A stretch of DNA of 64,000 nucleotides from a bacterium (GTDB taxonomy: Bacteria; Patescibacteriota; Microgenomatia; UBA1400; UBA12108). This document shows positions 29,037 through 50,119 of this stretch, one piece after another; position 1 is the first letter of the stretch; each line of letters begins with the position of its first letter. Where the stretch lies: the NCBI GenBank assembly GCA_021788365.1, contig JAJYKS010000003.1, positions 73,810 through 137,809 of the forward strand, written 5' to 3'. The notes beneath the pieces were generated by a model that made no database searches, was not told the DNA's origin, and saw nothing but the letters and a program-made list of their open reading frames with translations. A program made the position numbers and the translations under genes.

Positions 29037-29112
29037 GGTGGGCCAGCCTGGACTCGAACCAGGAACCTTGAAGGTATAAGCTTCCTGCGCTAACCAATTG
29101 CGCCACTGGCCC
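29037..29112 (-). tRNA. tRNA-Ile (anticodon TAT as read)
   Basis: Manual cloverleaf: acceptor GGGCCAG/CTGGCCC, D-arm GCGC/GCGC, anticodon loop CTTATAC, T-arm CCTGG-TTCGAGT-CCAGG; the 3' CC is encoded. Confidence 0.6.
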
Positions 29113-31045: not shown

Positions 31046-31187
31046 GGAGAGTGGGCAGGACGGTAATGCGCGAGTCTTGAAAACTCGTGTCCGTAAGGAC
31101 TAACAGGTTCGACCCCTGTACTCTCCGCCGAGATAACAGGCTACAGTCCTGAGCTTGTCGAAGGATTCGACCCCTGTACTCTCCGCC
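31046..31187. repeat. left arm of a long inverted repeat (IR-L) with 1.4 copies of a 58-bp tandem unit
   Basis: ggagagtgggcaggacggtaatgcgcgagtcttgaaaactcgtgtccgtaaggactaacaggttcgacccctgtactctccgcc gagataacaggctacagtcctgagcttgtcgaaggattcgacccctgtactctccgcc. Its reverse complement is found at 33231-33429. Confidence 0.8.
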
Positions 31188-33230: not shown

Positions 33231-33429
33231 GCGGAGAGTACAGGGGTCGAATCCTTCGACAAGCTCAGGACTGTAGCCTGTTATCTCGGCGGAGAGTACA
33301 GGGGTTGAATCCTTCGACAAGCTCAGGACTGTAGCCTGTTATCTCGGCGGAGAGTACAGGGGTCGAACCTGTTAGTCCTTACGGACACGAGTTTTCGAAA
33401 CTCGCGCATTACCGTCCTGCCCACTCTCC
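33231..33429. repeat. right arm of the long inverted repeat (IR-R) with 2.4 copies of the 58-bp tandem unit
   Basis: Units at 33233-33290 and 33291-33348 plus a partial third, then ...cgcgcattaccgtcctgcccactctcc; reverse complement of IR-L with one extra unit and a few substitutions. Confidence 0.8.
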
Positions 33430-38344: not shown

Positions 38345-38420
38345 TCCCCTGTAGCTCAGTCGGTAGAGCGCCTCGCTGTTAACGAGGATGTCGCAGGTTC
38401 GAGCCCTGCCGGGGGAGCCA
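38345..38420 (+). tRNA. tRNA-Asn (anticodon GTT)
   Basis: Manual cloverleaf: acceptor TCCCCTG/CGGGGGA, D-arm GCTC/GAGC, anticodon loop CTGTTAA, T-arm GCAGG-TTCGAGC-CCTGC, encoded CCA. Confidence 0.85.
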
Positions 38421-39995
38421 AATTGGATTGGCTGGTCGCAAAGATGGGTTTTTGATCAATAGTTCCGTGTATTTTTGAGGTTCGAGCCGCTTCTTGTACT
38501 TTTCTTCCCATTTTTCGGGATTTTGTATAGCCAGAAAATGGTTTAACAGGTGTATCCGTATATTCTTATTGAAGTAGGTGAGGTTCGAACTGAGATCGAG
38601 TAGCAGCTTATGCTTTTCTTCTCTGGTTCCCGTCTTGAATTTGTGCTCTGCAGCGTAGGCTAGGTCAAGTGCATTTTCTATTCGCCTGCGATTATCGTCG
38701 AGATCCTGACTTGTGTTGGTTAGCTGCTGCTCCAGGGTATGTTTTTCACTCTCTAGCTTGCGTTTCTTCTCGTTGTATACAGCTTCGTCGATGTTATTTT
38801 CAAGACGCATATCCAAAAGGGTATTTAATTTGTTCTCTACGATTTGGAGAGCGCTTTGGCGTGAAGCCATGACGTTTTCTTGGAACAGGTGCTCGTCTTT
38901 ATGAGCGTATCTAAGCCATTTTTTGGCCCATTCGACAAACTCTTGGGGTGGGCGAATGGAAAGTAATACTTCTTTGATTTGGTCATTGAGCTCAGATTCC
39001 GTTATCGGTTTTTGATTACAGCGAGGGAACCGTCTTTTCTTCGAGCAATGATAGTAAGTGTATATGGCGGTACGATTGGTTTTTTTGTAATGCTTGGGTT
39101 TACGGCTAGCGGTAATAGAGCACCCACATTCTTCACAACGCATGAGTCCGGTTAAGTTAAACAAATGTGATCTCCTAATCGGCTTGCCGAGTTTGCCGAG
39201 CATGCGTTGAATGATGTCGAATTCGACTCTGGTAATCATTGCTTCATGTTTACCTTGAATCCAATGTCCTGATTGCGCTGGCCACTCGTATTCTCCGTAG
39301 TAGAAGGGGTTATTGAGTATATTGTAAAAAGTAGAGCCGGAGAGTTTACCTCCTTGTTGTCCGGTGAGTTTCCATTCGTTGCGTGCCATTAGCCATACGT
39401 CGCAAGCTTGTGAACCTGCGAGAATTTCGTGGAAGCATCGTTTTACGAGCGCGAACTTGAGCGGGTCATTTTTTATGGTTTTATATCCTTTGGCAAGTTC
39501 GGGTGTGTTGATGTAGCCTAATGGAGCTACGGTAGGGTACCAGCCCATTTCGGCTTTTTGTTTCATGCCTCTTACAACATCAACTCCTTTTTTATCGTTC
39601 TCATACTTGGCTTGGATCATACAGAATGCCAGCCACATTTTGTCATTGGGGTTGTTGAGGAAAGTTTGGGAGGGGGTGATAATGCGGATCAGCAGTTTTC
39701 TATCCATGAGGTCGATAATTCGAGCGGAGTCTACCGGGTTACGGGAGAGACGATCAGCGTGCCATACCATTATGGTGTCGACCTCCCCGTTTTCTATTAG
39801 CTCCATGAGCCTGTTAAACTGCTCTCGTCGCCCGGAGATTTTGGCGGATTTAGATTCGTAGAGCTCAATTCTTTCTTTGGGGAGATCAGGTGTTCTTTCG
39901 GCTAGTTTGTTCATTTCTTCCATTTGTGCCGGAATGGAAAGCATTTGCCGATCTTCTGTTTCACTGGATTTACGTGCGTAAATTGCATATTTCAT
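38379..39995 (-). CDS. large serine recombinase (resolvase/invertase catalytic domain + recombinase domain + zinc ribbon)
   Basis: 538 aa; N-terminal YARKSSETEDRQMLSIPAQ with the catalytic Ser; recombinase domain; CEECGC...CSKK zinc ribbon; C-terminal coiled coil; the last about 14 codons read into the tRNA-Asn 3' half. Confidence 0.8.
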   Translation of the reverse strand: MKYAIYARKSSETEDRQMLSIPAQMEEMNKLAERTPDLPKERIELYESKSAKISGRREQFNRLMELIENGEVDTIMVWHADRLSRNPVDSARIIDLMDRKLLIRIITPSQTFLNNPNDKMWLAFCMIQAKYENDKKGVDVVRGMKQKAEMGWYPTVAPLGYINTPELAKGYKTIKNDPLKFALVKRCFHEILAGSQACDVWLMARNEWKLTGQQGGKLSGSTFYNILNNPFYYGEYEWPAQSGHWIQGKHEAMITRVEFDIIQRMLGKLGKPIRRSHLFNLTGLMRCEECGCSITASRKPKHYKKTNRTAIYTYYHCSKKRRFPRCNQKPITESELNDQIKEVLLSIRPPQEFVEWAKKWLRYAHKDEHLFQENVMASRQSALQIVENKLNTLLDMRLENNIDEAVYNEKKRKLESEKHTLEQQLTNTSQDLDDNRRRIENALDLAYAAEHKFKTGTREEKHKLLLDLSSNLTYFNKNIRIHLLNHFLAIQNPEKWEEKYKKRLEPQKYTELLIKNPSLRPANPIWLPRQGSNLRHPR

Positions 39996-40060
39996 GTTTT
40001 CCTTTCAAGGTAAATAAAAGCATTTAATGAGTTATATAGCTACCATAAAGGGAAGTAGGA

Positions 40061-40104
40061 GTTACTTTATAGTTACTTTTCCTATAGTTACTATAGTTAC
40101 TATA
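40061..40104. repeat. four tandem copies of a TAGTTACT-type unit (iteron/arm-site-like) upstream of the integrase gene
   Basis: gttactttatagttacttttcctatagttactatagttactata; a related pair gtagttatttgtagttata occurs at 43374-43395. Confidence 0.5.
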
Positions 40105-40432
40105 TTGGTATTTCCTCCGGATTAACTGACATGAGTGGCTCGTAGGGGAGGTCTAGCCTGCGAAACTCGTCATAGATTTTTTCTTCAATAGCTTGCCACA
40201 GTTCCTTATCTTCGAAATAAACAACTTTCATCCAATATGGACCTGTGGGAATAGACGGTGGTTCTATCTGGATTTTCTCTTGAAAACGAGGATGTGTGAA
40301 TTGAGACTTCTGTATCCGTATTCCGTGTATCCTTAATCCTCCGATAAGGATGTCGGCACGTGCTATTACGCTAGTTTTTTTGGTTACCGGTCTGACCGAT
40401 ATGTCTTGCAGGTCGTAAATGTTGAGTGTCAT
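40100..40432 (-). CDS. hypothetical protein (weak SpoVG-like resemblance)
   Basis: 110 aa; pattern IxVRPV...IARADILIGGLRIHGIRI loosely recalls SpoVG; not secure. Confidence 0.35.
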   Translation of the reverse strand: MTLNIYDLQDISVRPVTKKTSVIARADILIGGLRIHGIRIQKSQFTHPRFQEKIQIEPPSIPTGPYWMKVVYFEDKELWQAIEEKIYDEFRRLDLPYEPLMSVNPEEIPI

Positions 40433-40453
40433 CTTTCATCTCCTTTCGTACTT

Positions 40454-40681
40454 TTAATCTTTTTCCATGAACGCGTGCAGTGCATGAGTAAGCTGTTCGG
40501 TTGTTTTGTACACACCCTCGTTTGTAAGACCGTGTTGGTAGGCAACACGCAGCTTAAATATGATTTCTGAGCTTTTTGCCGTCTGGATGAAATGGTAAAT
40601 GCGTTTGATTTTGCGGGATCTGATAGATTGGATCGTGCCGGTAGGATCAATGGCTTGAATGGCGATTTGAGGAGGTTTCAT
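40454..40681 (-). CDS. hypothetical small protein
   Basis: 75 aa; start ATG overlaps the stop of the upstream 49-aa ORF (ATGA). Confidence 0.35.
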   Translation of the reverse strand: MKPPQIAIQAIDPTGTIQSIRSRKIKRIYHFIQTAKSSEIIFKLRVAYQHGLTNEGVYKTTEQLTHALHAFMEKD

Positions 40682-40827
40682 TGTTTCAACTCCGATGGTT
40701 TGGTGACTAGCTCTACAAAGTTGAATAACTTGTTTGCGTATTCGGAAGCTTCCTCAAAGGACAATATAACCCCGTATAGTTTTTTGTAGATGTCCTGGTA
40801 TTCGATCACAGCTTCTCTAGGTAGCAT
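40679..40827 (-). CDS. hypothetical small protein (49 aa, not in the ORF track)
   Basis: Reverse strand ATGCTACCTAGAGAAGCTGTGATCGAATACCAG... gives MLPREAVIEYQDIYKKLYGVILSFEEASEYANKLFNFVELVTKPSELKQ; stop overlaps the downstream start; begins 1 nt after the upstream stop. Confidence 0.3.
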
Positions 40828-40828
40828 G

Positions 40829-41074
40829 TCATAATCCTTGGTGAAGCCTCGTTTTTAATTCGTTTATGGCGTCAATGACTGCTTTGGTGGGAAGTACAAG
40901 TTTGCCATTCCAATGCTGCTCTATAAGGTTGTTGGCTTGTAAAGGAGAGATGTCGAAGTGGAACAGGTATGTTTTGCTGTCTATTGGTTCCAGGTGGGTA
41001 AGTGTGGCGCCGGCTGCACGAAGACATGCGCTTAGGTAGAAATCGCGTGATTGAAAAGTTATTCCATTGTTCAT
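40829..41074 (-). CDS. hypothetical small protein (possibly DUF5659-like)
   Basis: 81 aa; DFYLSACLRAAG...YLFHF...LKTRL pattern. Confidence 0.35.
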   Translation of the reverse strand: MNNGITFQSRDFYLSACLRAAGATLTHLEPIDSKTYLFHFDISPLQANNLIEQHWNGKLVLPTKAVIDAINELKTRLHQGL

Positions 41075-41149
41075 TATGCTCTCGACTTTATGTCAAAAGC
41101 ATAGGACTAAATACCACAGTAAAAGTTTAGAAAAAGTGTTGGAAACTGT

Positions 41150-41887
41150 CTATTTTAGGAGTTTTTCGATGGGCTCGTTTGACATAACGTAGGTTAGTAG
41201 GTCTTTGTGAGTGAAGAGGCTTGAAAGATAGTCATTTAGCCTTGTTACGCGGGTGTCCATGTCTTTATATGTCATTTCTTGGAACATGATGTCTTCTGGA
41301 TCAAATTTGCTTCTAATCCTCTCCAAGAGCTTAATGTTTTTCCTTGCTTTGCCGGATTTTGAGTATGTTGTGACTAGATTGTAGATTTGGCGAATAGACA
41401 AATCCACCGAAAGTGTTTTCTTGTTGATTTGGATTTTGTTGACGGGAAGAGTATCGAGTTGATCTTTTAAAGCCTTGTTTTTTCTGATCAATTCTGCCAG
41501 TTCTGTTCGTGACATTTGTTCGTTTACCGTAATGGTCACTTTTCCGTTTCCTTTCGTACTTGAGATTGGAGGTATGCATACCCGATGTTTCACGAGCGGC
41601 AGTCCTATGAGTAGAGCAGTGATTGTTGTTGTCCAATTCCACGCGAGATTTAGTCGGCTGGTTAGTAAGATGGCGATATTGATAAGTCGCTTGTGGTCGA
41701 TATTGCGAAATGCGTCGGAATCAGTTGCTATTCCATCCACGGGTATGCCGCATGCTTTTCTGGTTTTGGATATAACTATTTGGAAAGTTGGGATTTCCAT
41801 GAGTAGAAAAAAATACTTTTTTTCGCCCGGTGTGAATTCAATCTCATTGGGATCTGTTGGTTTAGCAAACTTGATATTCATTTTCAT
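41150..41887 (-). CDS. hypothetical protein
   Basis: Trimmed to MKMNIKFAKP (ATG at 41885-41887); 245 aa; no motif recognised; could be a replication/regulatory protein of the element. Confidence 0.45.
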   Translation of the reverse strand: MKMNIKFAKPTDPNEIEFTPGEKKYFFLLMEIPTFQIVISKTRKACGIPVDGIATDSDAFRNIDHKRLINIAILLTSRLNLAWNWTTTITALLIGLPLVKHRVCIPPISSTKGNGKVTITVNEQMSRTELAELIRKNKALKDQLDTLPVNKIQINKKTLSVDLSIRQIYNLVTTYSKSGKARKNIKLLERIRSKFDPEDIMFQEMTYKDMDTRVTRLNDYLSSLFTHKDLLTYVMSNEPIEKLLK

Positions 41888-41895
41888 GTACGTAC

Positions 41896-42108
41896 ATTTT
41901 ACTCTGGTTGAAGACCCATAGGCTATGCTACAATCGTTTTGTTCGCCTAAACCTCGAGTAATCGAGGCATGGTGAGAAATACCGCTACAGAACGAGGGAG
42001 CTCCTCGTTTAGGTGCTGTAGCGGTCGCATCTCGAAAGGGGTGTGGGTGGCGCAAGCCACTGCCTAGCGGGGAGCTTTTTGTAGCTCCTAGCCTAGGGTT
42101 AGGAGATC
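41896..42108 (+). promoter_or_regulatory. extended -10 promoter (TTGAAG ... TGcTACAAT) plus an about 185-nt structured leader with three hairpins and alternative pairings, ending in an AGGAGA RBS
   Basis: Hairpins CCTCGAGTAATCGAGG, GCTACAG-aaCGAGGgagctCCTCG-tttaggtg-CTGTAGC and GGAGCTttttgtAGCTCC; CCTAAAC can alternatively pair with GTTTAGG. Confidence 0.4.
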
Positions 42109-42891
42109 ATGCTACTAGACCGTAAGAAGATAGGACATTATTTCGCAGAAGCAGTAAAGATACTGGTGGCTTCTGTCATTGTTATCTATTTGGTCTTTAC
42201 AGCCCTCCATTCCAGTGACAAAGTTGCTGATGTCCCATCACCAGCCCCAGCTAGTAATACATGTATCCGACAATCCCCATACCCATTAAAGCCGGAGTTT
42301 GACCGTGTGCTGAGCCTACTGCTGCAGCGATATCAACAAGCTAACTCTCCCCAATATGCCACTTTCTCTATAATGCGAAATTGTCTTGACGTGCAGTTTG
42401 CTGACCTTGGTAATCAAGGAGCCGAGGGAGTATTCTATTTTGATCAAAAACTGTCTAATCCTCAACGTCTATTGATTGAGGTTGATTCCAAATACTCGTC
42501 CACCGATGATCTTACGACGGCTTTTCTATTGTCACACGAGATGGCTCATGCCAGGCAATATGTCGAAAGTACAAGTAGTAATAAGCAGTGGGGCTGTGTT
42601 GATGCTGAGGTGGATGCGTTCTATTCCCAACTTCTGTTTGGTGCCATGCTTAACAAAGAGGAAAGTAGTTCAATTGTTTCGAGGCTAGAGCGAGGATCCA
42701 ACAACAGCCAACTGAAAGAATATGAGCATCTATTGGACGTCAGCTACACGGCGATCGGTGAGTGTCGAAGTGGCAATAGCGCTCAAGGCAAGGTTGATAC
42801 AGTTTGTTACAAAGACAAATTGTACAAAGCAATGCGTGCCGAAATTGTCTCAAATCCGTTTTACCAAGAAGAATGCAAAGGGGACCTGTGA
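42109..42891 (+). CDS. membrane-anchored HExxH zinc metallopeptidase-like protein
   Basis: 260 aa; N-terminal TM; HEMAH motif (LSHEMAHARQY); no further family assignment. Confidence 0.55.
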   Translation: MLLDRKKIGHYFAEAVKILVASVIVIYLVFTALHSSDKVADVPSPAPASNTCIRQSPYPLKPEFDRVLSLLLQRYQQANSPQYATFSIMRNCLDVQFADLGNQGAEGVFYFDQKLSNPQRLLIEVDSKYSSTDDLTTAFLLSHEMAHARQYVESTSSNKQWGCVDAEVDAFYSQLLFGAMLNKEESSSIVSRLERGSNNSQLKEYEHLLDVSYTAIGECRSGNSAQGKVDTVCYKDKLYKAMRAEIVSNPFYQEECKGDL

Positions 42892-42915
42892 TCTACTACA
42901 TAATCTTCATACCCA

Positions 42916-43067
42916 TGGTACTTGGGATCGCTTATTATCTTTGGTCGGCTAAATATCCGGAACTTGGAGAGAAACTCGAAGAGAGACTTGAACCAGTGGT
43001 ACAGTTCTGCGGATACTGTCTGGGGATCGGAATTATCCTTGTTCTTTTATGGGGAATGTTTTCGTAA
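42916..43067 (+). CDS. hypothetical small hydrophobic peptide
   Basis: MVLGIAYYLWSAKYPELGEKLEERLEPVVQFCGYCLGIGIILVLLWGMFS; start ambiguous (the track ORF starts earlier in an overlapping frame). Confidence 0.3.
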
Positions 43068-43450
43068 GGAGATTGGCATCAGTCTTCATATACTAGGGAT
43101 ATAGGAGGCATGGTTTAGTGCATTTTGTTGCTCACGGGGCCACCTGAGGGTGTAACGCCTCGTAAGGATTTTTTGGTGCGGACATTGTCTTATCGACAAA
43201 ACATTGCCCCAAGAGCCTTTAAGCGGCCAAACACATAAATTTGCCTTTTATGTGTGTGTTTCCTCTGAAAACCTTTAGTATCCTTAAGTTTGTCCAGAAA
43301 ACATGGAATACTTTTGAATCGTTGATCTTGGCAGAACGTATATTTTTAGTTAGCGACTTGAGTAATAGTTGTAGTTATTTGTAGTTATATTTCTGGTTAC
43401 CTTGAGCATCCTTGAGTTATTTAGTCTATGATACCCTCAATAGTTGATGG

Positions 43451-45244
43451 TTAAAGTTGATTTTTATCTCTAAGTCTCCGATATAGTTCTGCAACCCATG
43501 GCGAATAGTGTTTTGTCTGAAATACTAAATGTAGCTCATATTTTGCCCTGGTTACCCCCACATAAAACAATCTTCTCGCTTCATACATGTCTTCGGAATT
43601 ATCCGGTTCGTATTGATTCGGGAAATGGCCTTGGTTCATATTGAACAGAATCACAATATCAAATTCTCTGCCTTTTGAACTGTGAAGCGTACTTAGATTG
43701 AGTCTTCCCTCATTAGTCATGTGACCCGAAAATTGCAGTAGAGATAGGTCCGAGTTATTCATGGAGCCATCAGTCCTTTGTATCATCGTATCAATTGTTG
43801 ACCAATCATCGATTTTTGTTTTAGCTAATGCAAGCCATGGTGTAATTAACTCTTCTTTAAATTTTAATAGCCAATCATGAGTTGAGCCTGTTGAGTTTAT
43901 AGTCTTGTGTAGAAATCCCAAAAGGGTGGTTTCTATGTATCTTTGTTCTTCTCTAGAGATTGTATGTCCGTATACTAGTCTGATTGCCTCGGTGGTGAGA
44001 TGCTGGAATGATGGACTTGCGTTTTTCCATCCGCCCGTAATCCATGATGAGCATGCTTCAATGAACCGAGATAATCGATTGTTTCTTAGGATTAGTGCAT
44101 TTCTGTCTGCACGAATAACAGGAATATTCTGGGATGCTGCAATTGAGGATAGTAAGTCTCCATCTTTAGAGTCACGATAAAGTACGGCGATTTTTTCAAG
44201 CGGTACTCCATTTTCACTTAGCTTAGGTATTAACTCTTTGATTACATAATTTGCTTGTTCTGTGAGATTTCCATCAACTTTGTCAAAGGATATCAATCCT
44301 TTGCTCGTTCCTGAAGGAGCTTTGTGGTTTCGATCTTGACCAAGTGCAGAGTTGGACGCTTCAATAATGCTTGTTCCACATCTGTAATTAAAAGGAAGTT
44401 GTATAGTTTTAACTTGTGGGTAAGTGGTTAGGCTCTTTAATAGTTCAGGATTTGCGCCAGTAAACCGATAGATTGATTGATCTGGATCCCCGACCGCGAA
44501 AAGTCGAATATTCGATTTGAAGCAGAGTTGTAATACTAATTCATGTAGAGCGGTGCCAAGATCCTGATATTCGTCAATAAAGAGTACTGGGTATTTTGCA
44601 TGCATTGCCTCCCTTATCCACTCGTTTTCGATTACTAATCTAGCTGCTAACAATGGCATGTCTTCAAAATCAATTAGACCATTTTTGCGAAGATCATTTT
44701 CATACGAGTTGATAATCGCAATAATGCCCTTATCCTGATTATTCCAATTTTCGCTATTTCTATTGACTACTGTTCGCCTTATTAATTCAGCAGTTTTCCA
44801 TGTGTTGTTTTGTATTATCGGTTTTCCAGTAACGACTTGAAAAGAATTTAGCTTAGACTGTTTTGTTTGCTGAAGCGTAGCTATTTGAGGTTCTATTGGA
44901 AAATCCTTGTAAACACATCTTGCATAGGGCAATATGATCTGCGAATATGCAAAGCTATGTACTGTTCCAATAAAAATTCTATCACTTGGCTCTATTCCTA
45001 TTTTCAGTAGTTTTCCTTCTAACTCTAGTGCACACTCGTTGTTATATGTTACACAAGCAATTCCCCGCGGCTCTACAACATCGTCTAATAATGCGCGCGC
45101 AATTGCTGTTGTAAGCGTTCTTGTTTTTCCACTGCCTGGACCGGCTAAAACTACACAGTGTCCTTTTTCCTGAACTGCCTCAATTTGCTGAGGGTTGCCA
45201 TCCATTTCTTCGAGCGTTTGTTGAAAAAGACTACGACTGGACAT
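43451..45244 (-). CDS. gajB: UvrD/PcrA-like superfamily 1 helicase, Gabija GajB-like
   Basis: 597 aa; Q-motif/Walker A VVLAGPGSGKTRTL, Walker B FIDEYQD, motifs III-VI; start overlaps the upstream OLD-family gene by 14 nt. Confidence 0.7.
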   Translation of the reverse strand: MSSRSLFQQTLEEMDGNPQQIEAVQEKGHCVVLAGPGSGKTRTLTTAIARALLDDVVEPRGIACVTYNNECALELEGKLLKIGIEPSDRIFIGTVHSFAYSQIILPYARCVYKDFPIEPQIATLQQTKQSKLNSFQVVTGKPIIQNNTWKTAELIRRTVVNRNSENWNNQDKGIIAIINSYENDLRKNGLIDFEDMPLLAARLVIENEWIREAMHAKYPVLFIDEYQDLGTALHELVLQLCFKSNIRLFAVGDPDQSIYRFTGANPELLKSLTTYPQVKTIQLPFNYRCGTSIIEASNSALGQDRNHKAPSGTSKGLISFDKVDGNLTEQANYVIKELIPKLSENGVPLEKIAVLYRDSKDGDLLSSIAASQNIPVIRADRNALILRNNRLSRFIEACSSWITGGWKNASPSFQHLTTEAIRLVYGHTISREEQRYIETTLLGFLHKTINSTGSTHDWLLKFKEELITPWLALAKTKIDDWSTIDTMIQRTDGSMNNSDLSLLQFSGHMTNEGRLNLSTLHSSKGREFDIVILFNMNQGHFPNQYEPDNSEDMYEARRLFYVGVTRAKYELHLVFQTKHYSPWVAELYRRLRDKNQL

Positions 45245-47018
45245 TGTTTGAAATATACTCCAGAGCTACTTTTATGTATTCTGGCGGATTCAGGCCGATA
45301 CTTGCTTCGGAGAGTTTCCCAGCGAGCCTACCTTTTCCTATGTCAGAAATCATGGATAGTAACTGCTCTCCATTTATTGGACTCTCTCCATTTTTCCATG
45401 ATTCAATTCTTTGCTGTCTGACTGATCCAAAATTCTGTGCTTGAATGACCTCGAGAAGGGCGGTTCCTAATTCAGGAGTTTCTGCGACTTCGATTTCTAA
45501 AGTTGAGTTATTGCAAAATATACCATTTTCCATCCCTAAGCTTTTTAGTTTCTCTTCATCATTTGATAATTCTTGTTTTTCTGTTTCTGACATTTGCTCT
45601 TCATTTTTGAGTTCATTATTTAACTGGATTAACGAGAGTAGCCTATTAATACCTAGTGGTTGTTTGCCAGTAAGAGGATCCCAGTCTGTGATGATGCAAA
45701 AAGGAAGAGATAGCGATCTGGCGAGACGAACATAAGGGTCAAAGTTGACCCCGCCAACATTACATACGCTAATACCTAGGTCATCGAGATTTATGTTTAG
45801 GGTTTTGGAGAAAACAGGCATAAGAGCTTCTTCAGCGTCTCCTTCAACAAAAATAACACCTTTGGCAAACAAAATCTCTGCTCGAGTAGTATCCAAGTAT
45901 CTTTGTAAATCTTCCATCAACTCTGGCTGTAGAGCTAAACTTGCCAAGGAATGTCCTACGGTACCAAGCCCGTTTTCTTGTTTTAACACTACGATGGAGT
46001 TGAGTTGAGCAACACTCGCAATATTGGGTGAATGGGTGGTCATCAACAGACATAACGGTTCGTCTTTACTACTTTCAAAGAGCTTCTTAAAAACAGTTCG
46101 CTGAAGGTGTGGATGCAGATGTGCTTCTGGTTCCTCTATACACATTATCGTAAAATTTTGATCATTTTTTGTTCTAAGCCATTCGTATTCTGCTAACTTA
46201 AGGGTAAGGAGAACAAGATTTGCCGAGCCGAGGCTGGCATCGGATATTCCTCGTTTTCCATTGTCAATTAGCATGCGTACTGATCTGAATAATCGTTGCG
46301 GATTTGTTGGTGCAATGCCAAATTTAGCGTTTACATCGTTCATGGGGCCAGTAAGCGTCGAAATTTTGGAAGTGAGAGATGATTCCAAATCTTTAATGGA
46401 AGTGATGTTCGTTACTTGGGCAGTTGCATCTTCAACATTTTTTGCTACTTCTATAATTGTTTCTTTGGGAACTTTGCTAATGGCATCATCTAATAGTGGT
46501 CGAAGTGGAGAAGTTTGCCAGTTTCCGAGTTCTGTTTCAGCATCTCTGAGTGCATGTAAAATTTCAATGCATATTTTGTTTCTAACACTATTGGAAATAC
46601 CACCTCTGGATTCGTCACCCGCACCATAAACTTTAAATTCATAATCTGTTTCGGACTGCGCTTCCCCTGATACTTCTGGTTTTTTCCGATATACATAGCT
46701 TAATCTAGAAATTGTGTGGTCTTCAGCAAGTCTGTAGTCGGTTAGGAGGGCTAGTATTGCTTCATCACTATCAAAATCTGAAAAATCGAGATGTATTTCC
46801 ACTGTTGGGTTAGGATCGGTACATTCATCCCAAATATCCGTTTGCTTAAGTTGTCTAGCTGAGTCAGGTAGTGAAGCGTCTAAAACTAGCCTTAGCGCAA
46901 ATAGAAAATTGCTTTTACCGACTCTATTTTCGCCAACTATTACGGTATTTCCGCTTAGAGGAATGTCAAGCGATTTGAAGTTTCTAAAGTTTTTTATTTG
47001 AACTCTGGATAGTCTCAT
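45231..47018 (-). CDS. gajA: OLD-family ATPase-TOPRIM nuclease, Gabija GajA-like
   Basis: 595 aa; RecF/ABC-like N-terminus (MRLSRVQIKNFRNFKSL, Walker A GENRVGKSN, IEEPEAHLHP Walker B/H-loop) and C-terminal TOPRIM (FVEGDAEE, ITDWD). Confidence 0.75.
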   Translation of the reverse strand: MRLSRVQIKNFRNFKSLDIPLSGNTVIVGENRVGKSNFLFALRLVLDASLPDSARQLKQTDIWDECTDPNPTVEIHLDFSDFDSDEAILALLTDYRLAEDHTISRLSYVYRKKPEVSGEAQSETDYEFKVYGAGDESRGGISNSVRNKICIEILHALRDAETELGNWQTSPLRPLLDDAISKVPKETIIEVAKNVEDATAQVTNITSIKDLESSLTSKISTLTGPMNDVNAKFGIAPTNPQRLFRSVRMLIDNGKRGISDASLGSANLVLLTLKLAEYEWLRTKNDQNFTIMCIEEPEAHLHPHLQRTVFKKLFESSKDEPLCLLMTTHSPNIASVAQLNSIVVLKQENGLGTVGHSLASLALQPELMEDLQRYLDTTRAEILFAKGVIFVEGDAEEALMPVFSKTLNINLDDLGISVCNVGGVNFDPYVRLARSLSLPFCIITDWDPLTGKQPLGINRLLSLIQLNNELKNEEQMSETEKQELSNDEEKLKSLGMENGIFCNNSTLEIEVAETPELGTALLEVIQAQNFGSVRQQRIESWKNGESPINGEQLLSMISDIGKGRLAGKLSEASIGLNPPEYIKVALEYISNNVQS

Positions 47019-47078
47019 AGTTGTATTTTACTCTTCTGGAGATAGACTTACATAAATTGGTCATAATTAGGCTAAAAT

Positions 47079-47558
47079 ATGGTTATGGATTCACAGACGG
47101 TAATAAGCTATGTGCTTGGGGCTATTTCTGGCTTGGCACTGGCTGTTCTCAAAACCGTTCCAAAGATTGTCGAGGATATTTGGACTGATCATCGCGAGGC
47201 TCGAAAAGCGATAAAACTAGATAAAAACAATCTTGTTAGCCAGTTGCTATACGACCTGCCAAAAGGAAAGGCTCAAGATTTTTACTATACTACCGTTAAG
47301 AAAAGTGATGGGGAACACATCGTTGCTCGAATGTCGAAGTATGACAAGAAAATGGCACAACAGATTGACGCGTACCTTGATCTCTGGAGGCACTATGCCA
47401 CCTCAAAACGTTTAATTGACGATAACCATGAAATTGTCCTGATGGATGAGTACGATGAACCGGTTTCTAAAGGGCCGTTATACGTTGAAGGGTTGCTAGA
47501 CAGACTTTGCAAGGAGTATGGTTCGATAATTGACCTCTTGAACAAATGGAAGGTTTAA
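47079..47558 (+). CDS. hypothetical protein with an N-terminal TM helix
   Basis: 159 aa; TM VISYVLGAISGLALAVL; no family recognised. Confidence 0.45.
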   Translation: MVMDSQTVISYVLGAISGLALAVLKTVPKIVEDIWTDHREARKAIKLDKNNLVSQLLYDLPKGKAQDFYYTTVKKSDGEHIVARMSKYDKKMAQQIDAYLDLWRHYATSKRLIDDNHEIVLMDEYDEPVSKGPLYVEGLLDRLCKEYGSIIDLLNKWKV

Positions 47559-47617
47559 GGGGCCTCTGTAATTCATAGTCGTAAGGATGGGGTAGAGTAG
47601 AGGAGAACGGCGTCCGA

Positions 47618-47642
47618 AATTGACTCTAGTACGGGGAGCAAG
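47618..47642. repeat. 25-bp direct repeat, copy A (AATTGACTCTAGTACGGGGAGCAAG)
   Basis: Identical 25-mer at 48541-48565; lies 65 nt upstream of the NTase-fold gene start. Confidence 0.6.
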
Positions 47643-47707
47643 CATTTTTACCTCTGGAAGTTGAAATGACCCGCATTGGAATAGAGAACTTCTGATAACA
47701 TGTATTC

Positions 47708-48502
47708 ATGTCTGAAACAAACTTAGTTGACGAGAAGCTGATACAAAATCCTGCTAAGAGCAAATTTGACAGTGTTTTGAGAAATATACAGGAACACCTT
47801 TTTGTTACTCCAGATAGTGTTGTATATCGGAACGTTATGAAGAATTGGCTTCAATCTACCAAAAATAAAGTTGGAGTTGATGATCTGGTATTTTTTCCTA
47901 CTGGGTCAGTGGCAGTGGGAATGGTTAGTATAGAAGCTGGAAGTGATATTGATGGAGTGGTTGTATACAGTTGTACTTCGGATAAAACTGACTCGGTTAG
48001 CACAGCTCTTGTAAACGTAGATTTACCAGAAGAATTTAATCCATTTTTGGTAATGTCTCGAGTAGAAAACAGGATTGAAGGTTTTTTTGAGCGAGTTGAT
48101 GATGTTCTTATGATGAATAGACCTAGCATGACAGATGAGATAGCGCTGCTGTTTGCTCCAAGCCTATCTGAGTTGAGTGATGAGGCAGAAAAGTCACTTG
48201 TTGATGGATGGAGAAAACAGGTTATCGCTAAACTTGCTTTGTTACCGGAAGGAAAAGGTGAGTTGGTGTGGGGCTTGATGTGTGGATGGCTTGAGAAGCA
48301 GTTTGTCCACTATGAGGAGAGTGATGGGGGCGACCAAGAGAAAAGAAAAATCCGAGTAGAGTCTGTGATTGACAAAAAGATTTCTGAAAGAATCTCAGAT
48401 GATGGTGAGCGAAGGGAGAGGGCAAAGACTTTTATTGATAGTCTTAGGAGTACTTTTCACTACCCGAGTTTTGATGAAATGGTACTAGCTTATTTCAACT
48501 AG
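47708..48502 (+). CDS. nucleotidyltransferase-fold protein (Pol-beta superfamily; minimal NTase/CD-NTase-like)
   Basis: 264 aa; TGSVAVGMVSIEAGSDIDGVVV matches hG[GS]-x(9-13)-DhDh including the GS-x3-G-x7-SDID spacing; acidic residues downstream; acidic C-terminal tail. Confidence 0.5.
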   Translation: MSETNLVDEKLIQNPAKSKFDSVLRNIQEHLFVTPDSVVYRNVMKNWLQSTKNKVGVDDLVFFPTGSVAVGMVSIEAGSDIDGVVVYSCTSDKTDSVSTALVNVDLPEEFNPFLVMSRVENRIEGFFERVDDVLMMNRPSMTDEIALLFAPSLSELSDEAEKSLVDGWRKQVIAKLALLPEGKGELVWGLMCGWLEKQFVHYEESDGGDQEKRKIRVESVIDKKISERISDDGERRERAKTFIDSLRSTFHYPSFDEMVLAYFN

Positions 48503-48540
48503 CTACATCAGACTGGTTTTGATGCCACGATTGCGTTCTG

Positions 48541-48565
48541 AATTGACTCTAGTACGGGGAGCAAG
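48541..48565. repeat. 25-bp direct repeat, copy B
   Basis: Same 25-mer as 47618-47642; lies 100 nt upstream of the next gene start. Confidence 0.6.
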
Positions 48566-48664
48566 GCGTCTGAGAACTTATAATCTCAAGGCGTAATTTG
48601 GTAAAAATGACCTAGGTAGGTCAGTCTTCAGAGGTCACTCGGATAAGCCCTATAGTTTGTTTAT

Positions 48665-48943
48665 GTGATATACTGCTCGGTTATGCCAGAGACATTTAAG
48701 TGTTTTACGCTGTGTCCATATTTTGAGTGGGTGAGTGAAGATGGGCGTTCTGCATTTGTCCGATGCAAGGCACTCCCAGGTGGAACCGAATTTGAGGTGA
48801 TACCGGCAGGCGACTCTGCACCGGAGTTTTTTGAGGGTGTTAGAGAAGGGAAAGATATGAAACTCCCATATCCCTGCCAGGTGGTGGAGCCAACATTGAT
48901 TACCACAATTGCTTTATATATTTCTAATAAGAACAAAGATTGA
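48665..48943 (+). CDS. hypothetical small protein (Cys-rich N-terminus)
   Basis: 92 aa; stop overlaps the start of the HTH gene (ATGA). Confidence 0.35.
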   Translation: MIYCSVMPETFKCFTLCPYFEWVSEDGRSAFVRCKALPGGTEFEVIPAGDSAPEFFEGVREGKDMKLPYPCQVVEPTLITTIALYISNKNKD

Positions 48944-49221
48944 TAGGCAGCAATATGACCTATTCACCTGAAGATGTTGCCGCGATGTATGAGACGATGA
49001 CCGGCGAGGAAATCGCTGCGCTTACTGGACTTGCTTTGCTGAAGGTGTATGAGTTGGCGCGTGAGGGTGGAGCTGATATTCGTCCCCGTGGTCACAGACC
49101 TGTTTTAGAGAGCCCGGGACTTGATGTGCTTCAAGAAATGCTTGCCAATGCTTCACAACGTGAAGTTGCAGAGCAGCTGGGTGTTAGCAAACGGACAGTC
49201 CAGAGGTGGCTGGGTAAGTAG
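48940..49221 (+). CDS. small helix-turn-helix DNA-binding protein
   Basis: 93 aa; C-terminal SQREVAEQLGVSKRTVQRWL HTH (resolvase/sigma-70 region 4-like). Confidence 0.5.
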   Translation: MIGSNMTYSPEDVAAMYETMTGEEIAALTGLALLKVYELAREGGADIRPRGHRPVLESPGLDVLQEMLANASQREVAEQLGVSKRTVQRWLGK

Positions 49222-49334
49222 GTTGTCGAGCGTCCGAGTAAGCTCGTGAACTGAGTGCAGCGTTTGATTTTGACATAACTAGGGAAGTTAATATTAGATA
49301 TGGTTAAGTAGAAGGTATCGAGGTGTGGAAACTT

Positions 49335-49366
49335 CAGTTGACATCCTAGTCTTATAGTATAATACA
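49335..49366 (+). promoter_or_regulatory. sigma70-like promoter TTGACA-N14/16-TATAAT upstream of 49368
   Basis: ttgacatcctagtcttatagtataatac read directly; spacing is slightly short. Confidence 0.4.
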
Positions 49367-49367
49367 C

Positions 49368-49736
49368 TTGATGAGTGAACATCTGAGTCAATTTGTCGAA
49401 ATTGTACATATTGATCGAGCAAGTGTTGCGACTGGAGAAGGCCTTGTAGAGCAGAACATTAGGCGACTGATAAGTGCTGGGATAGAAGTACACTTTGTGT
49501 CTCCTGACGTAGATCTAGCAGTTCCTGTTTATACGGCGATGCCAGACAAAGATGTGAGTATAGTTTTGGGAGGAAAATATTTTAGCAATGGTCCAACAAT
49601 GCATGGACATGATTGTGTCGACAGAAGGGCAGCAGCTTGGAAAACTTTGGGATACTGCGTAATAATAAATCCGGAGATTACAATGACGGATGCAGAGGCT
49701 CAGTGGACGAGGTCGGATCAGGAATTCTCTGACTAG
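49368..49736 (+). CDS. hypothetical protein
   Basis: 122 aa; no motif. Confidence 0.4.
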   Translation: MMSEHLSQFVEIVHIDRASVATGEGLVEQNIRRLISAGIEVHFVSPDVDLAVPVYTAMPDKDVSIVLGGKYFSNGPTMHGHDCVDRRAAAWKTLGYCVIINPEITMTDAEAQWTRSDQEFSD

Positions 49737-49902
49737 CGTGAGATGGTGATCGACGACTCTTGTGAGTGGGGGATTTGGAAATGATAATGTAGTCGGAACA
49801 AGCTAACTACTTTCCGAGTAGTTTGAACGTTCTCCACGATGGGGAACACTACCTTAGGTTTTCTTAGAGTTTCTACAGAATTAGGTAGTCAGTGAATGAT
49901 AA

Positions 49903-50115
49903 GAAGAATCAACAAATTTTACAATAGAAAAGGCGAGGGCACGGTGGGTGCTCTATTATGTGGACACGCCAATGGACAAGATGCGGGTCCGCACGGCACA
50001 GCGGACGATACACCCAGGTACTGACTCGTTCGAGATTAGTGAGGAACTGTTTGAGAGCTACGTGAAATATTGGGAGCCGCCCGCGGCGGACGAGCAGTAT
50101 ACGCTCGCCGCATAA
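49903..50115 (+). pseudogene. possible 3' fragment of a truncated P-loop kinase/ATPase-like gene (no start codon)
   Basis: In-frame reading ...IEKARARWVLYYVDTPMDKMRVRTAQRTIHPGTDSFEISEELFESYVKYWEPPAADEQYTLAA* with no Met and an in-frame stop at 49900; lies at the presumed right edge of the island. Confidence 0.25.
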
Positions 50116-50119
50116 ACGC

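Follow-up and report, generated by a model that had tools for sequence, protein, structure and literature searches.

How does a large serine recombinase gene come to read into the 3' end of a tRNA gene, and where does the DNA brought in with such a gene begin and end? These questions are raised by a stretch of 64,000 nucleotides (nt) from a bacterium of the Patescibacteriota (GenBank assembly GCA_021788365.1, contig JAJYKS010000003.1), hereafter the window, in which a tRNA-Asn gene is followed by the recombinase gene and a block of DNA that differs from the flanks. All evidence considered, this locus very probably represents an integrative element of Patescibacteria that its large serine integrase inserted at the very 3' terminus of the tRNA-Asn gene of the host.

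The host tRNA-Asn(GTT) occupies positions 38345..38420 on the plus strand (ARAGORN; Rfam, 69.6 bits). The large serine recombinase, hereafter the integrase, is encoded on the minus strand (38379..39995; 538 amino acids (aa); Pfam PF00239, PF07508 and PF13408), and its last 14 codons (WLPRQGSNLRHPR* with the stop) are the reverse complement of the last 42 nt of the tRNA. Up to the crossover, the element's part of the integrase gene contains no stop codon, and about 12 codons together with the TAA stop are supplied by the host tRNA. The adjoining 11.5 kb (38419-49923) are compositionally foreign, with a GC content of 0.40-0.47 against 0.50-0.51 in the flanks and a tetranucleotide distance to the host of 0.34, compared to 0.10 (maximum 0.116) for host chunks of the same size; host-like composition is regained at a gene fragment at 49924-50119. 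A first-pass annotation of the window, made from the sequence alone, had described a serine-integrase element at tRNA-Asn with the integrase open reading frame (ORF) reading into the tRNA; the overlap is real and recurs in 42 of the 80 homologous loci described below, and the k-mer and GC comparison proposed there sets the island apart from its flanks.

The boundaries of the foreign DNA emerge from the comparison with two related contigs, L085 (ENA ERZ27237554), 98% identical to the host flank, and L086 (GCA_021842825.1), which is 87% identical. Both contain the same tRNA-Asn without the integrase of the window, and in both, the homology to the window ends at 38418. At this tRNA-Asn, L085 carries an insert, denoted E', which is 1,955 bp long, is unrelated to the window, contains three ORFs and lacks an integrase; it then realigns with the window from 48886, at 98.8% identity, until the L085 contig ends at 49402. 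The left junction of the window reads ...CCGGGGGAGC followed by CAAATTGG, and the right junction reads ...GGTGGTGGAGC followed by CAACATTG; in L085, the respective junctions are ...CCGGGGGAGC followed by TGGGTTAA and ...GAACGGGGAGC followed by CAACATTG. The only sequence common to all four is GGAGC, that is, tRNA positions 70-74, comprising the end of the acceptor stem, the discriminator base and C74, and located at 38414..38418 in the left attachment (att) site, attL, where the homology to both relatives stops. This comparison shows that the boundary between host and element lies at GGAGC and that the tRNA body is intact host DNA; the crossover therefore occurred at the extreme 3' end of the tRNA, and the 3' half of the tRNA is not DNA of the element. 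The crossover dinucleotide would be located in or beside the GGAGC core at 38414-38418. The block common to the attL core and the 48886 junction reaches 38421 (GGAGCCAA), and the identity between the window junctions amounts to 5-8 bp, in agreement with the earlier expectation of the short identity that serine integrases leave. Two independent Logan contigs of 1,038 nt (L093 and L094, from SRR13240876 and SRR17201078, respectively) span exactly 48886-49923 and, because their ends are exact at both positions, the assembly graphs must branch at the junction and at the edge of the truncated gene. The serine-integrase element at tRNA-Asn proposed from the first reading is thus borne out by the Pfam domains and by the relatives with the same host tRNA and no such integrase; the strain comparison likewise favors mobility, given that the 98%-identical L085 lacks both the recombinase and the Gabija system of the window at this tRNA-Asn.

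Two side observations concern these contigs. The ORFs of E' encode 111, 89 and 380 aa without family matches, and its far arm is of the canonical +5 type described below (L085:518-2467); the first 43 nt of E' are identical in L086 (L086:1-43), the host of which is just 87% identical, suggesting that E' itself is mobile. In the anticodon stem of the tRNA-Asn, positions 38374 and 38382 form a compensated pair, G-C in the window and C-G in L085 and L086, despite the 98%-identical flanks.

An exact search of the far side of the foreign block recovered no repeat of the tRNA end reaching 10 nt in length, and a local-alignment scan for the tRNA end there yielded a score of 24 compared to a null of 23 +/- 2, that is, chance level. 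The mapping of att sites by aligning the two sides, as initially proposed, thus failed, and it was the comparison with L085 and L086 that located the junctions.

The protein has, as judged from its sequence and a structural model, the full architecture of a large serine recombinase. The Resolvase domain (PF00239) is matched at E = 2.7e-20, and the matches to Recombinase (PF07508) and Zn_ribbon_recom (PF13408) are both above the cut-offs. In an alignment of 36 homologs, Y6, R8, S10, R82 and R85 are invariant, R8 and S10 being catalytic, and four cysteines (C287, C290, C317 and C326) are conserved. An AlphaFold (AF2) model built from the 36 homologs, with a mean predicted local distance difference test (pLDDT) score of 84.9, contains the catalytic domain, the long alphaE helix, the recombinase domain and zinc-ribbon hairpins; helices 351-398 and 404-455, located between the zinc-ribbon strands, make up a helical hairpin (351-455) that, in the model, corresponds to the coiled-coil motif inserted in the zinc-ribbon domain. 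The last nine residues, encoded by the tRNA, are disordered (pLDDT below 50). A sequence search against PDB reaches catalytic domains only; hence the fold was searched with Foldseek, which produced full-length matches to the SPbeta-type, PhiC31, Bxb1 and LI integrases, with E-values down to 5e-19 and 13-19% identity. So far as can be told from sequence, the protein is a member of the serine integrases; catalysis of attP x attB recombination and excision dependent on a recombination directionality factor are predicted properties.

Homologs of the integrase number in the thousands at 35-60% identity and come almost exclusively from Patescibacteria metagenomes. At least 585 integrase loci are found in species-representative genomes, and 80 loci were fetched for analysis of context; the taxonomic labels of some metagenome-assembled genome records are unreliable, and gene context was used for this reason. 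A tRNA convergent with the integrase gene extends over the integrase stop in 42 of the 80 loci, the overlap being 11-97 nt (25 Asn(GTT), 9 Gln, 3 His and single cases of Lys, Glu, Trp, Leu and Ser), and in several others, the contig edge falls inside the tRNA. The overlap accounts for a conserved protein tail, ...NPxWLPR(V/Q)DSN..., where W corresponds to the CCA end and DSN to the T-loop, both read backwards.

The spacing of motifs within these sites falls into two classes. On the integrase coding strand, the distance from the core GCTCC to the T-loop GAACC is 18 nt in 31 of 32 real tRNAs, whereas the second class of arms shows a 23-nt spacing, with the conserved pattern GCTCC-N8-GAACGAGGTTAGAACCTAC. 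This +5 arm is the far end of the neighboring element in the tandem arrays L011, L045 and L054, where a real tRNA-Asn overlaps with a second integrase gene at a distance of 8-9 kb, and it likewise serves as the attR arm in four complete elements, 8.7-11.3 kb long, namely, L019 (at tRNA-Gln; 11,349 bp), L021 (8,715 bp), L026 (11,281 bp) and L069 (11,086 bp). The identity between attL and attR in these elements is 6-10 bp (TCCCCCAGCA in L019, CGGAGC in both L021 and L026, and GGAGCCATT in L069), and all the identical blocks cover the GGAGC core position. In E' of L085, the T-loop motif is found at exactly +5 as well. In the clade denoted E1, no far arm was detected within the 8-10 kb at hand for L142 and L143. 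For the LI integrase, a 9-bp motif bound by the zinc ribbon resides at positions 16-24 in the attP half-sites and 5 bp closer to the center in attB (Rutherford et al. 2013, PMC3783163). By analogy, the simplest reading is that the T-loop and T-stem of the tRNA represent an attB-type motif and that the far arm is a T-loop mimic at the attP spacing; the window tRNA-Asn would then provide the B arm of the attachment site, consisting of the T-loop GGTTCGAG and the 3' strand of the acceptor stem. Among the complete elements, the B' arm on the host side shows no conservation, which suggests that the tRNA arm supplies most of the specificity, and tolerance of the host-side arm would permit stacking of elements. 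The combination of tRNA overlap, short att identity, +5 mimic, stacking and defense cargo is, judging from these loci, a family-wide architecture. As a separate matter, the reconstructed empty sites of L021, L026 and L069 encode the CCA end (GGAGCCA...); the integrated L021 and L026 read GGAGCATT... and GGAGCAAGG..., respectively, with the encoded CCA lost, and the CCA is kept in the window and in L069.

The same loci bear on a different explanation, namely, that the overlap arose by coincidence. The recombinase would then be an invertase or resolvase of the chromosome, or belong to another element, and the island would have been built otherwise, for instance, by a tyrosine integrase, since lost, with a crossover in the anticodon loop. 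Islands at tRNA genes are classically made by tyrosine integrases (PMC7192596), and several relatives showed only the 3' half of a tRNA beside the integrase. However, these half-tRNA loci contain a tRNA-Asn(GTT) with a group I intron in the anticodon loop (after ...CTGT and before TAACGAGG), recognized by RF00028 with 71.9 bits in L142 (11624-11846) and 59 bits in L029 (11717-11896), and present also in L143 and L032; the 5' halves lie 220-500 nt away, and ARAGORN made no tRNA call at these loci because the intron interrupts the gene. Two candidate scenarios for the half-tRNAs, a crossover in the anticodon loop with an element-borne tRNA 3' half and displacement by tyrosine-integrase elements, were abandoned on account of these introns. 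Adjacency, orientation and reading register are kept across the 42 overlapping loci, the complete elements possess att sites of the serine type, no displaced tRNA fragment is present in the window, and 38419-49923 contains no Pfam match to a tyrosine integrase (Phage_integrase). Incidental overlap is largely refuted by these findings and appears extremely improbable.

The block inserted at the tRNA is apparently not one unit. An initial boundary model, with one element at 38419-48890, was replaced after the far-arm pattern learned from the relatives had been scanned over the window and had revealed two canonical, near-identical sites inside the block. The first, GCGTCCGAAATTGACTCTAGTACGG-GGAGC-AAG, is located on the plus strand at 47610..47642 (core, 47635-47639), and the second, GCGTTCTGAATTGACTCTAGTACGG-GGAGC-AAG, also on the plus strand, at 48533..48565 (arm, 48533-48557; core, 48558-48562). 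Together, they constitute a 33-nt direct repeat, D1, the copies of which are 91% identical, lie 923 bp apart and bracket a single gene for a 264-aa protein. The inner arm of D1 (reverse complement GCTCCCCGTA) is the same as the inner attR arm of L069, one of the complete elements, and all of its ten bases except the last also agree with E'. When attL is joined to 47639 or 48562, the integrase becomes 547 or 543 aa long, ending in WLPVLESISD... or WLPVLESIQN..., respectively; both tails resemble those of integrases of the family with no adjoining tRNA (WLPALEQIRTSIF, WLPLVDMFIDREI...).

On these grounds, the foreign block appears to be a stack of at least four segments, split at 47635-47639, 48558-48562 and 48886-48890, a subdivision that draws on pattern matches and consistency arguments and is less certain than the outer boundaries. 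Unit A (38419-47639; 9,221 bp) would comprise the integrase, small ORFs, the Gabija genes and a gene for a 159-aa protein, with the far arm and core at 47610-47642 most likely being the attR of this integrase unit. Module B (47640..48562, plus strand; 923 bp; GC 0.402) would consist of the single 264-aa gene (47708-48502) and its own far arm; this gene has no Pfam or PADLOC matches and was found only in this context. Segment C (48563..48890, plus strand; 328 bp) ends with CCCTGCCAGGTGGT-GGAGC, its core at 48886-48890 coinciding with the resumption of homology to L085 at 48886. Segment D (48891..49923, plus strand; GC 0.439), containing an HTH_17-type gene (48955-49221; Pfam HTH_17 at 2.7e-8) and a gene for a 121-aa protein (49371-49736), is common to the window and L085 at 98.8% identity and is probably an older remnant; its left end (reverse complement ...GNQCWL) resembles, on reading the sequence, an integrase-tail P' arm. 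Beyond it, a truncated host gene (49903..50115, plus strand), of which only the C-terminal ~60 aa remain, with in-frame stops upstream and a host-like GC content of 0.566, forms the outer edge of the island next to genes for adh and a ComB-type phosphatase. The first-pass annotation had pictured a single element of about 11.7 kb (38345-50115) with defense-like cargo up to a truncated gene by adh; the foreign block and its cargo stand, as does the truncated gene, and the single unit does not. The strains in the two samples that yielded the Logan contigs differ also to the right of the HTH segment, where these contigs end at 49923.

A single element of 10.5-11.5 kb, with the right end at 48890 or about 49923 and with the internal 33-nt repeats being regulatory or terminator sequences rather than att arms, is an alternative to the stack. 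In the strain comparison by itself, 38419-48885 differs from L085, where it is absent, as one block; furthermore, the 264-aa gene is never met in another context, and a single far-arm pattern match, taken alone, carries no strong significance. However, the arm at 48869-48890, which resembles the tRNA end with three 1-nt insertions, lacks the T-loop mimic that every validated far arm contains, and joining attL to the 48890 junction gives an atypical integrase of 605 aa in the excised form. The D1 copies, in contrast, fit the far-arm pattern on the correct strand, share their inner arm with the L069 attR and in part with E', and restore the family-typical integrase tail, and stacking is directly seen in relatives. 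We therefore regard a single element as unlikely and prefer the stack. The earlier statement that no tRNA-end repeat exists at the far side holds for a long repeat; a degenerate, spacing-shifted mimic is nevertheless present, which goes unnoticed in searches for exact repeats.

Under the preferred reading, integration into the 3' end of tRNA-Asn followed by stacking, the following sequence of events can be proposed. The integrase would exchange 2 bp within GGAGC, its zinc-ribbon domain reading the T-loop and T-stem of the tRNA as an attB-type half-site, as suggested by family comparison and published structures, and the T-loop mimic 5 bp further out as an attP-type half-site at the far end. 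The integrase ORF runs through the element's own attachment arm and stops inside the tRNA, and the tail WLPRQGSNLRHPR* of the integrated form is predicted to change to WLPVLESISD... upon excision; in many relatives, the P' arm would additionally give the tRNA a terminator-like hairpin and T-run. Newcomers would insert beside the tRNA and push older elements outward, building up a stack of defense genes in which each internal junction consists of the far arm of the younger element, the core and the integrase-side arm of the older one. The predicted attP of the excised circle is GACTCTAGTACGGGGAGC joined to CAAATTGGATTGGCTGG, and the predicted scars are CCCTGCCGGGGGAGC joined to AAGCATTTTTACC, and ...GGGGGAGC joined to AAGGCGTCTGAG or ...GGGGGAGC joined to CAACATTGATTACC.

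Several points weigh against this scheme. The support is wholly computational. A degenerate att pattern, GSYGGKGGAGCCAAMWTKGATTRSCWS, that covers attB, attP, attL and attR has no matches in IMG/VR and none in JGI metagenomes, and neither a truly empty site nor an excised circle was recovered from viral and JGI metagenome contigs. No recombination directionality factor was recognized among the small ORFs by Pfam or PADLOC. A dyad-symmetry scan gives GA, AG or GC at individual sites, so that no one central dinucleotide is singled out, and the pooled peak, at -3.5, is incompatible with attB/attP identity. Canonical serine-integrase theory forbids recombination between attP and attL, which leaves stack formation unexplained. 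The far arms of the window show a spacing of 24 nt, not 23, their T-loop mimics GTCCGAAAT and GTTCTGAAT each have one extra base, and the arm of segment C is non-canonical. Finally, the far-arm pattern is estimated to match about 0.3 times by chance in 64 kb, so that a lone match is not very improbable; the weight of the match comes from its position, strand, duplication and inner-arm identity.

Some of the same irregularities can be read as signs of decay. The island might be a fossil, inserted by the integrase, now immobile and kept for its Gabija system, with the differences from L085 reflecting old events along with homologous exchange via the tRNA and segment D. The off-spacing far arms, the one degenerate junction arm, the weak terminator-like hairpin of the window, the failure to find an excised form in the pattern search of IMG/VR and JGI metagenomes, and the truncated host gene at the outer edge, which shows secondary rearrangement, all fit this possibility. 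Conversely, the integrase retains an uninterrupted ORF, its catalytic residues are invariant and its fold is modeled with confidence, presence and absence are polymorphic between 98%-identical strains, and the assembly graphs of two more samples branch exactly at the junctions. Immobility has, in our assessment, a modest probability; it concerns the present activity of the island, not its origin, and is compatible with the insertion of the element at the tRNA end by a serine integrase.

A bolder extension of the preferred reading is an integron-like serine-integrase system at tRNA 3' ends in Patescibacteria. The T-loop and the acceptor strand would then form a nearly self-sufficient attB half-site that tolerates almost any partner arm, and full elements as well as integrase-less modules of one to three genes, each with a T-loop-mimic far arm, would be inserted serially in trans, with the segment 47640-48562 of the window and the 1,955-bp E' of L085 and L086 as candidate modules; a palindrome 64 nt inside the integrase gene could be a further control site. 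Taken jointly, these parts, namely, the near self-sufficient tRNA half-site, trans insertion of integrase-less modules, an exchangeable defense stack and a control palindrome, make up a tentative proposal that we consider rather doubtful as a whole. The resemblance to integrons is functional only, given that the enzyme is a serine integrase rather than IntI and that the module ends are mimics of tRNA ends instead of attC hairpins.

The 3' end of the integrase gene is itself subject to unusual constraints. The P' arm of the element (38419..38460; codons ...SLRPANPIW) resides within the coding region, and all 46 distinct family members are free of stops in the 25 codons that precede the core. 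On the tRNA-sense strand, a strong hairpin followed by a T-run is found 6-12 nt past the tRNA in 21 of 45 members under a strict criterion, compared to 0.7 (maximum 2) in shuffled sequences, and the mean folding energy of the P' arm is -13.3 kcal/mol versus -7.8 kcal/mol in shuffles. In about half of the family, this hairpin looks like a terminator that the element supplies to the tRNA; examples are L010, L037, L058 and L066, and the stems covary. In the window, the hairpin (38424-38456), which is followed by TTTTT, is weak and is not called as a terminator, so that the terminator idea is unsupported for this copy. Within the integrase gene, at a distance of about 64 nt from the core, a T-loop-like motif, GAGGTTCGAGC (38477..38487), belongs to a palindrome, (A/G)GTT(C/A)GAACCT, that is kept at 64 +/- 1 nt in essentially all 46 members. 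The palindrome is read in three frames (RLEP, ARTS and KVRT) and is therefore constrained as nucleic acid, either DNA or RNA. An Rfam search of the junction recovered the tRNA only, with no family covering the P' arm or this inner motif.

The cargo of the integrase unit includes what is, by sequence, a complete Gabija anti-phage system. GajB, a UvrD-type helicase (43451..45244, minus strand), matches PADLOC PDLC00117 over its full length with E = 5.2e-220 (Pfam UvrD-helicase and UvrD_C), and GajA, an OLD-type ATPase with a TOPRIM nuclease (45231..47018, minus strand), matches PDLC00070, also over the full length, with E = 6e-225 (Pfam AAA_15 and OLD-like_TOPRIM); the two genes are on the same strand and overlap by 14 nt. 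The last gene of the unit, a hypothetical one for 159 aa (47079..47558, plus strand), has no family matches. Between the integrase and GajB (40100..42891) are small hypothetical ORFs, those on the minus strand encoding 110, 75, 49 and 81 aa, in addition to an ORF of 129/245 aa, and the one on the plus strand encoding 260 aa; none of them has Pfam or PADLOC matches, and a recombination directionality factor could be among them. Among the tested ORFs of 38419-49923, Pfam detected no phage structural (capsid, portal, terminase or tail), conjugation or replication genes, and IMG/VR contigs contain distant relatives of the integrase only; some of the small hypothetical ORFs may be divergent phage genes.

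Upstream of the integrase (40060..40101, plus strand), there are four direct repeats of the form (G/T)AGTTACT, three of which are exact copies of TAGTTACT (at 40070, 40085 and 40094, within 32 nt; 5 in the window compared to 1.14 expected) and one, at about 40060, is the variant GAGTTACT, as read from the sequence. The first-pass annotation had iteron-like repeats flanking the integrase start; the repeats exist, but all of them lie on one side, 75-106 nt upstream of the start for the TAGTTACT repeats, and they look like operator sites in the integrase promoter region.

Defense genes are present in every element examined. L021 carries the specificity subunit and the methylase of a type I restriction-modification (R-M) system, L019 and L026 carry methyltransferases with a nuclease-like partner, L069 a Mokosh-like helicase, and the element of integrase P0005 an OLD-family nuclease, at the same host locus, beside DUF5652 and rpoD. 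Separately, in L144 (11847-21626), integrase P0011 (52% identical) abuts an island with SocA_Panacea, a ResIII helicase, an N6_N4 methyltransferase and a 1,414-aa helicase, another defense-rich neighbor at the same kind of junction.

Among the described systems, large serine integrases (A118/LI, SPbeta, PhiC31, Bxb1 and TP901-1) share with this family the domain order, including a zinc ribbon with an inserted coiled coil, the short att sites with few common bases and the 5-bp outward shift of the distal motif in the element arm relative to the host arm (PMC3783163). Unlike these, the clade of the window targets the 3' end of a tRNA rather than a protein-coding gene, has its P' arm inside its own integrase gene with the stop borrowed from the host, shows no conservation of the host-side B' arm, and forms tandem elements without phage structural genes in the tested cargo. 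With tRNA islands of tyrosine integrases (Islander/TIGER-type; P4-like elements, integrative and conjugative elements (ICE) and actinomycete ICE (AICE)), these elements share the tRNA landing site, the tRNA-proximal integrase, preservation of the tRNA, tandem accretion and adaptive cargo. However, the enzyme belongs to another family, and the displaced tRNA fragment of such islands, usually at least 15 nt and as much as about 45 nt long, is absent. The crossover is located at positions 70-74, whereas in those islands it falls in the anticodon or T-loop and a piece of the tRNA is carried along; the far arm is a spacing-shifted mimic, not a copy. Integration also changes the integrase C-terminus between the free and integrated forms, as in the SSV-type archaeal integrases and in the integration-dependent immunity of mycobacteriophages. 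In both of those systems, which employ tyrosine integrases, attP lies inside a gene and the product is changed: integration either splits the gene or takes away a degradation tag, and an effect on regulation has been demonstrated; in the window, the change involves about 12 terminal residues, the last nine of which are disordered.

Defense islands on integrative elements (PMC10201445, PMC10121019), including pipolins (PMC11551731), likewise have defense systems, here Gabija, R-M, OLD and Mokosh-like genes, as the main cargo of small elements at a hotspot; the differences here are the patescibacterial host, the serine integrase, the hotspot at tRNA 3' ends and the integrase-less modules with their own far arm. 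In its account of computationally predicted serine-integrase islands, the TIGER survey places 14 of 297 at t(m)RNA genes and calls for experimental proof (Mageeney et al. 2020, PMC7192596); that account contains no clade, att logic or mechanism, whereas a whole clade with interpretable half-sites is apparent here. To the extent of that account, a clade that is systematically found at tRNA genes is a counter-example to the general claim on serine integrases. The literature searched, the coverage of which was incomplete, yielded no description of a tRNA-targeting clade of serine integrases or of such elements in Patescibacteria. Thus, this is apparently a large, undescribed integrase clade targeting tRNA 3' ends, a kind of target for which serine integrases are not known; the clade differs from the described systems in its tRNA 3'-end target, the arm inside the integrase gene, the T-loop mimic and stacking. 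The single island of the window is ordinary in function, a defense island on an integrative element, and it is the targeting logic at the level of the clade that is surprising.

Because the half-site logic is readable from sequence, the structural model of attB and attP can be tested on a natural, universally conserved target, and a serine integrase that mainly recognizes a tRNA 3' end might be usable in many genomes whose landing site would not have to be engineered first. Patescibacteria, with their small genomes, appear to acquire and exchange defense systems via small stacked elements at tRNA-Asn and tRNA-Gln. Because attL and attR share only 5-10 bp, such elements will escape island finders that rely on repeats.

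Other tRNA genes of the window show features of their own. The genes for tRNA-Ser(TGA) (31046-31129) and tRNA-Ser(CGA) (33321-33429) are inverted relative to each other and 98% identical over 109 nt, including flanking bases, with more partial copies near this pair. A tRNA-Ile with the anticodon TAT, which is uncommon in bacterial tRNA-Ile, is located at 29037-29112 (ARAGORN).

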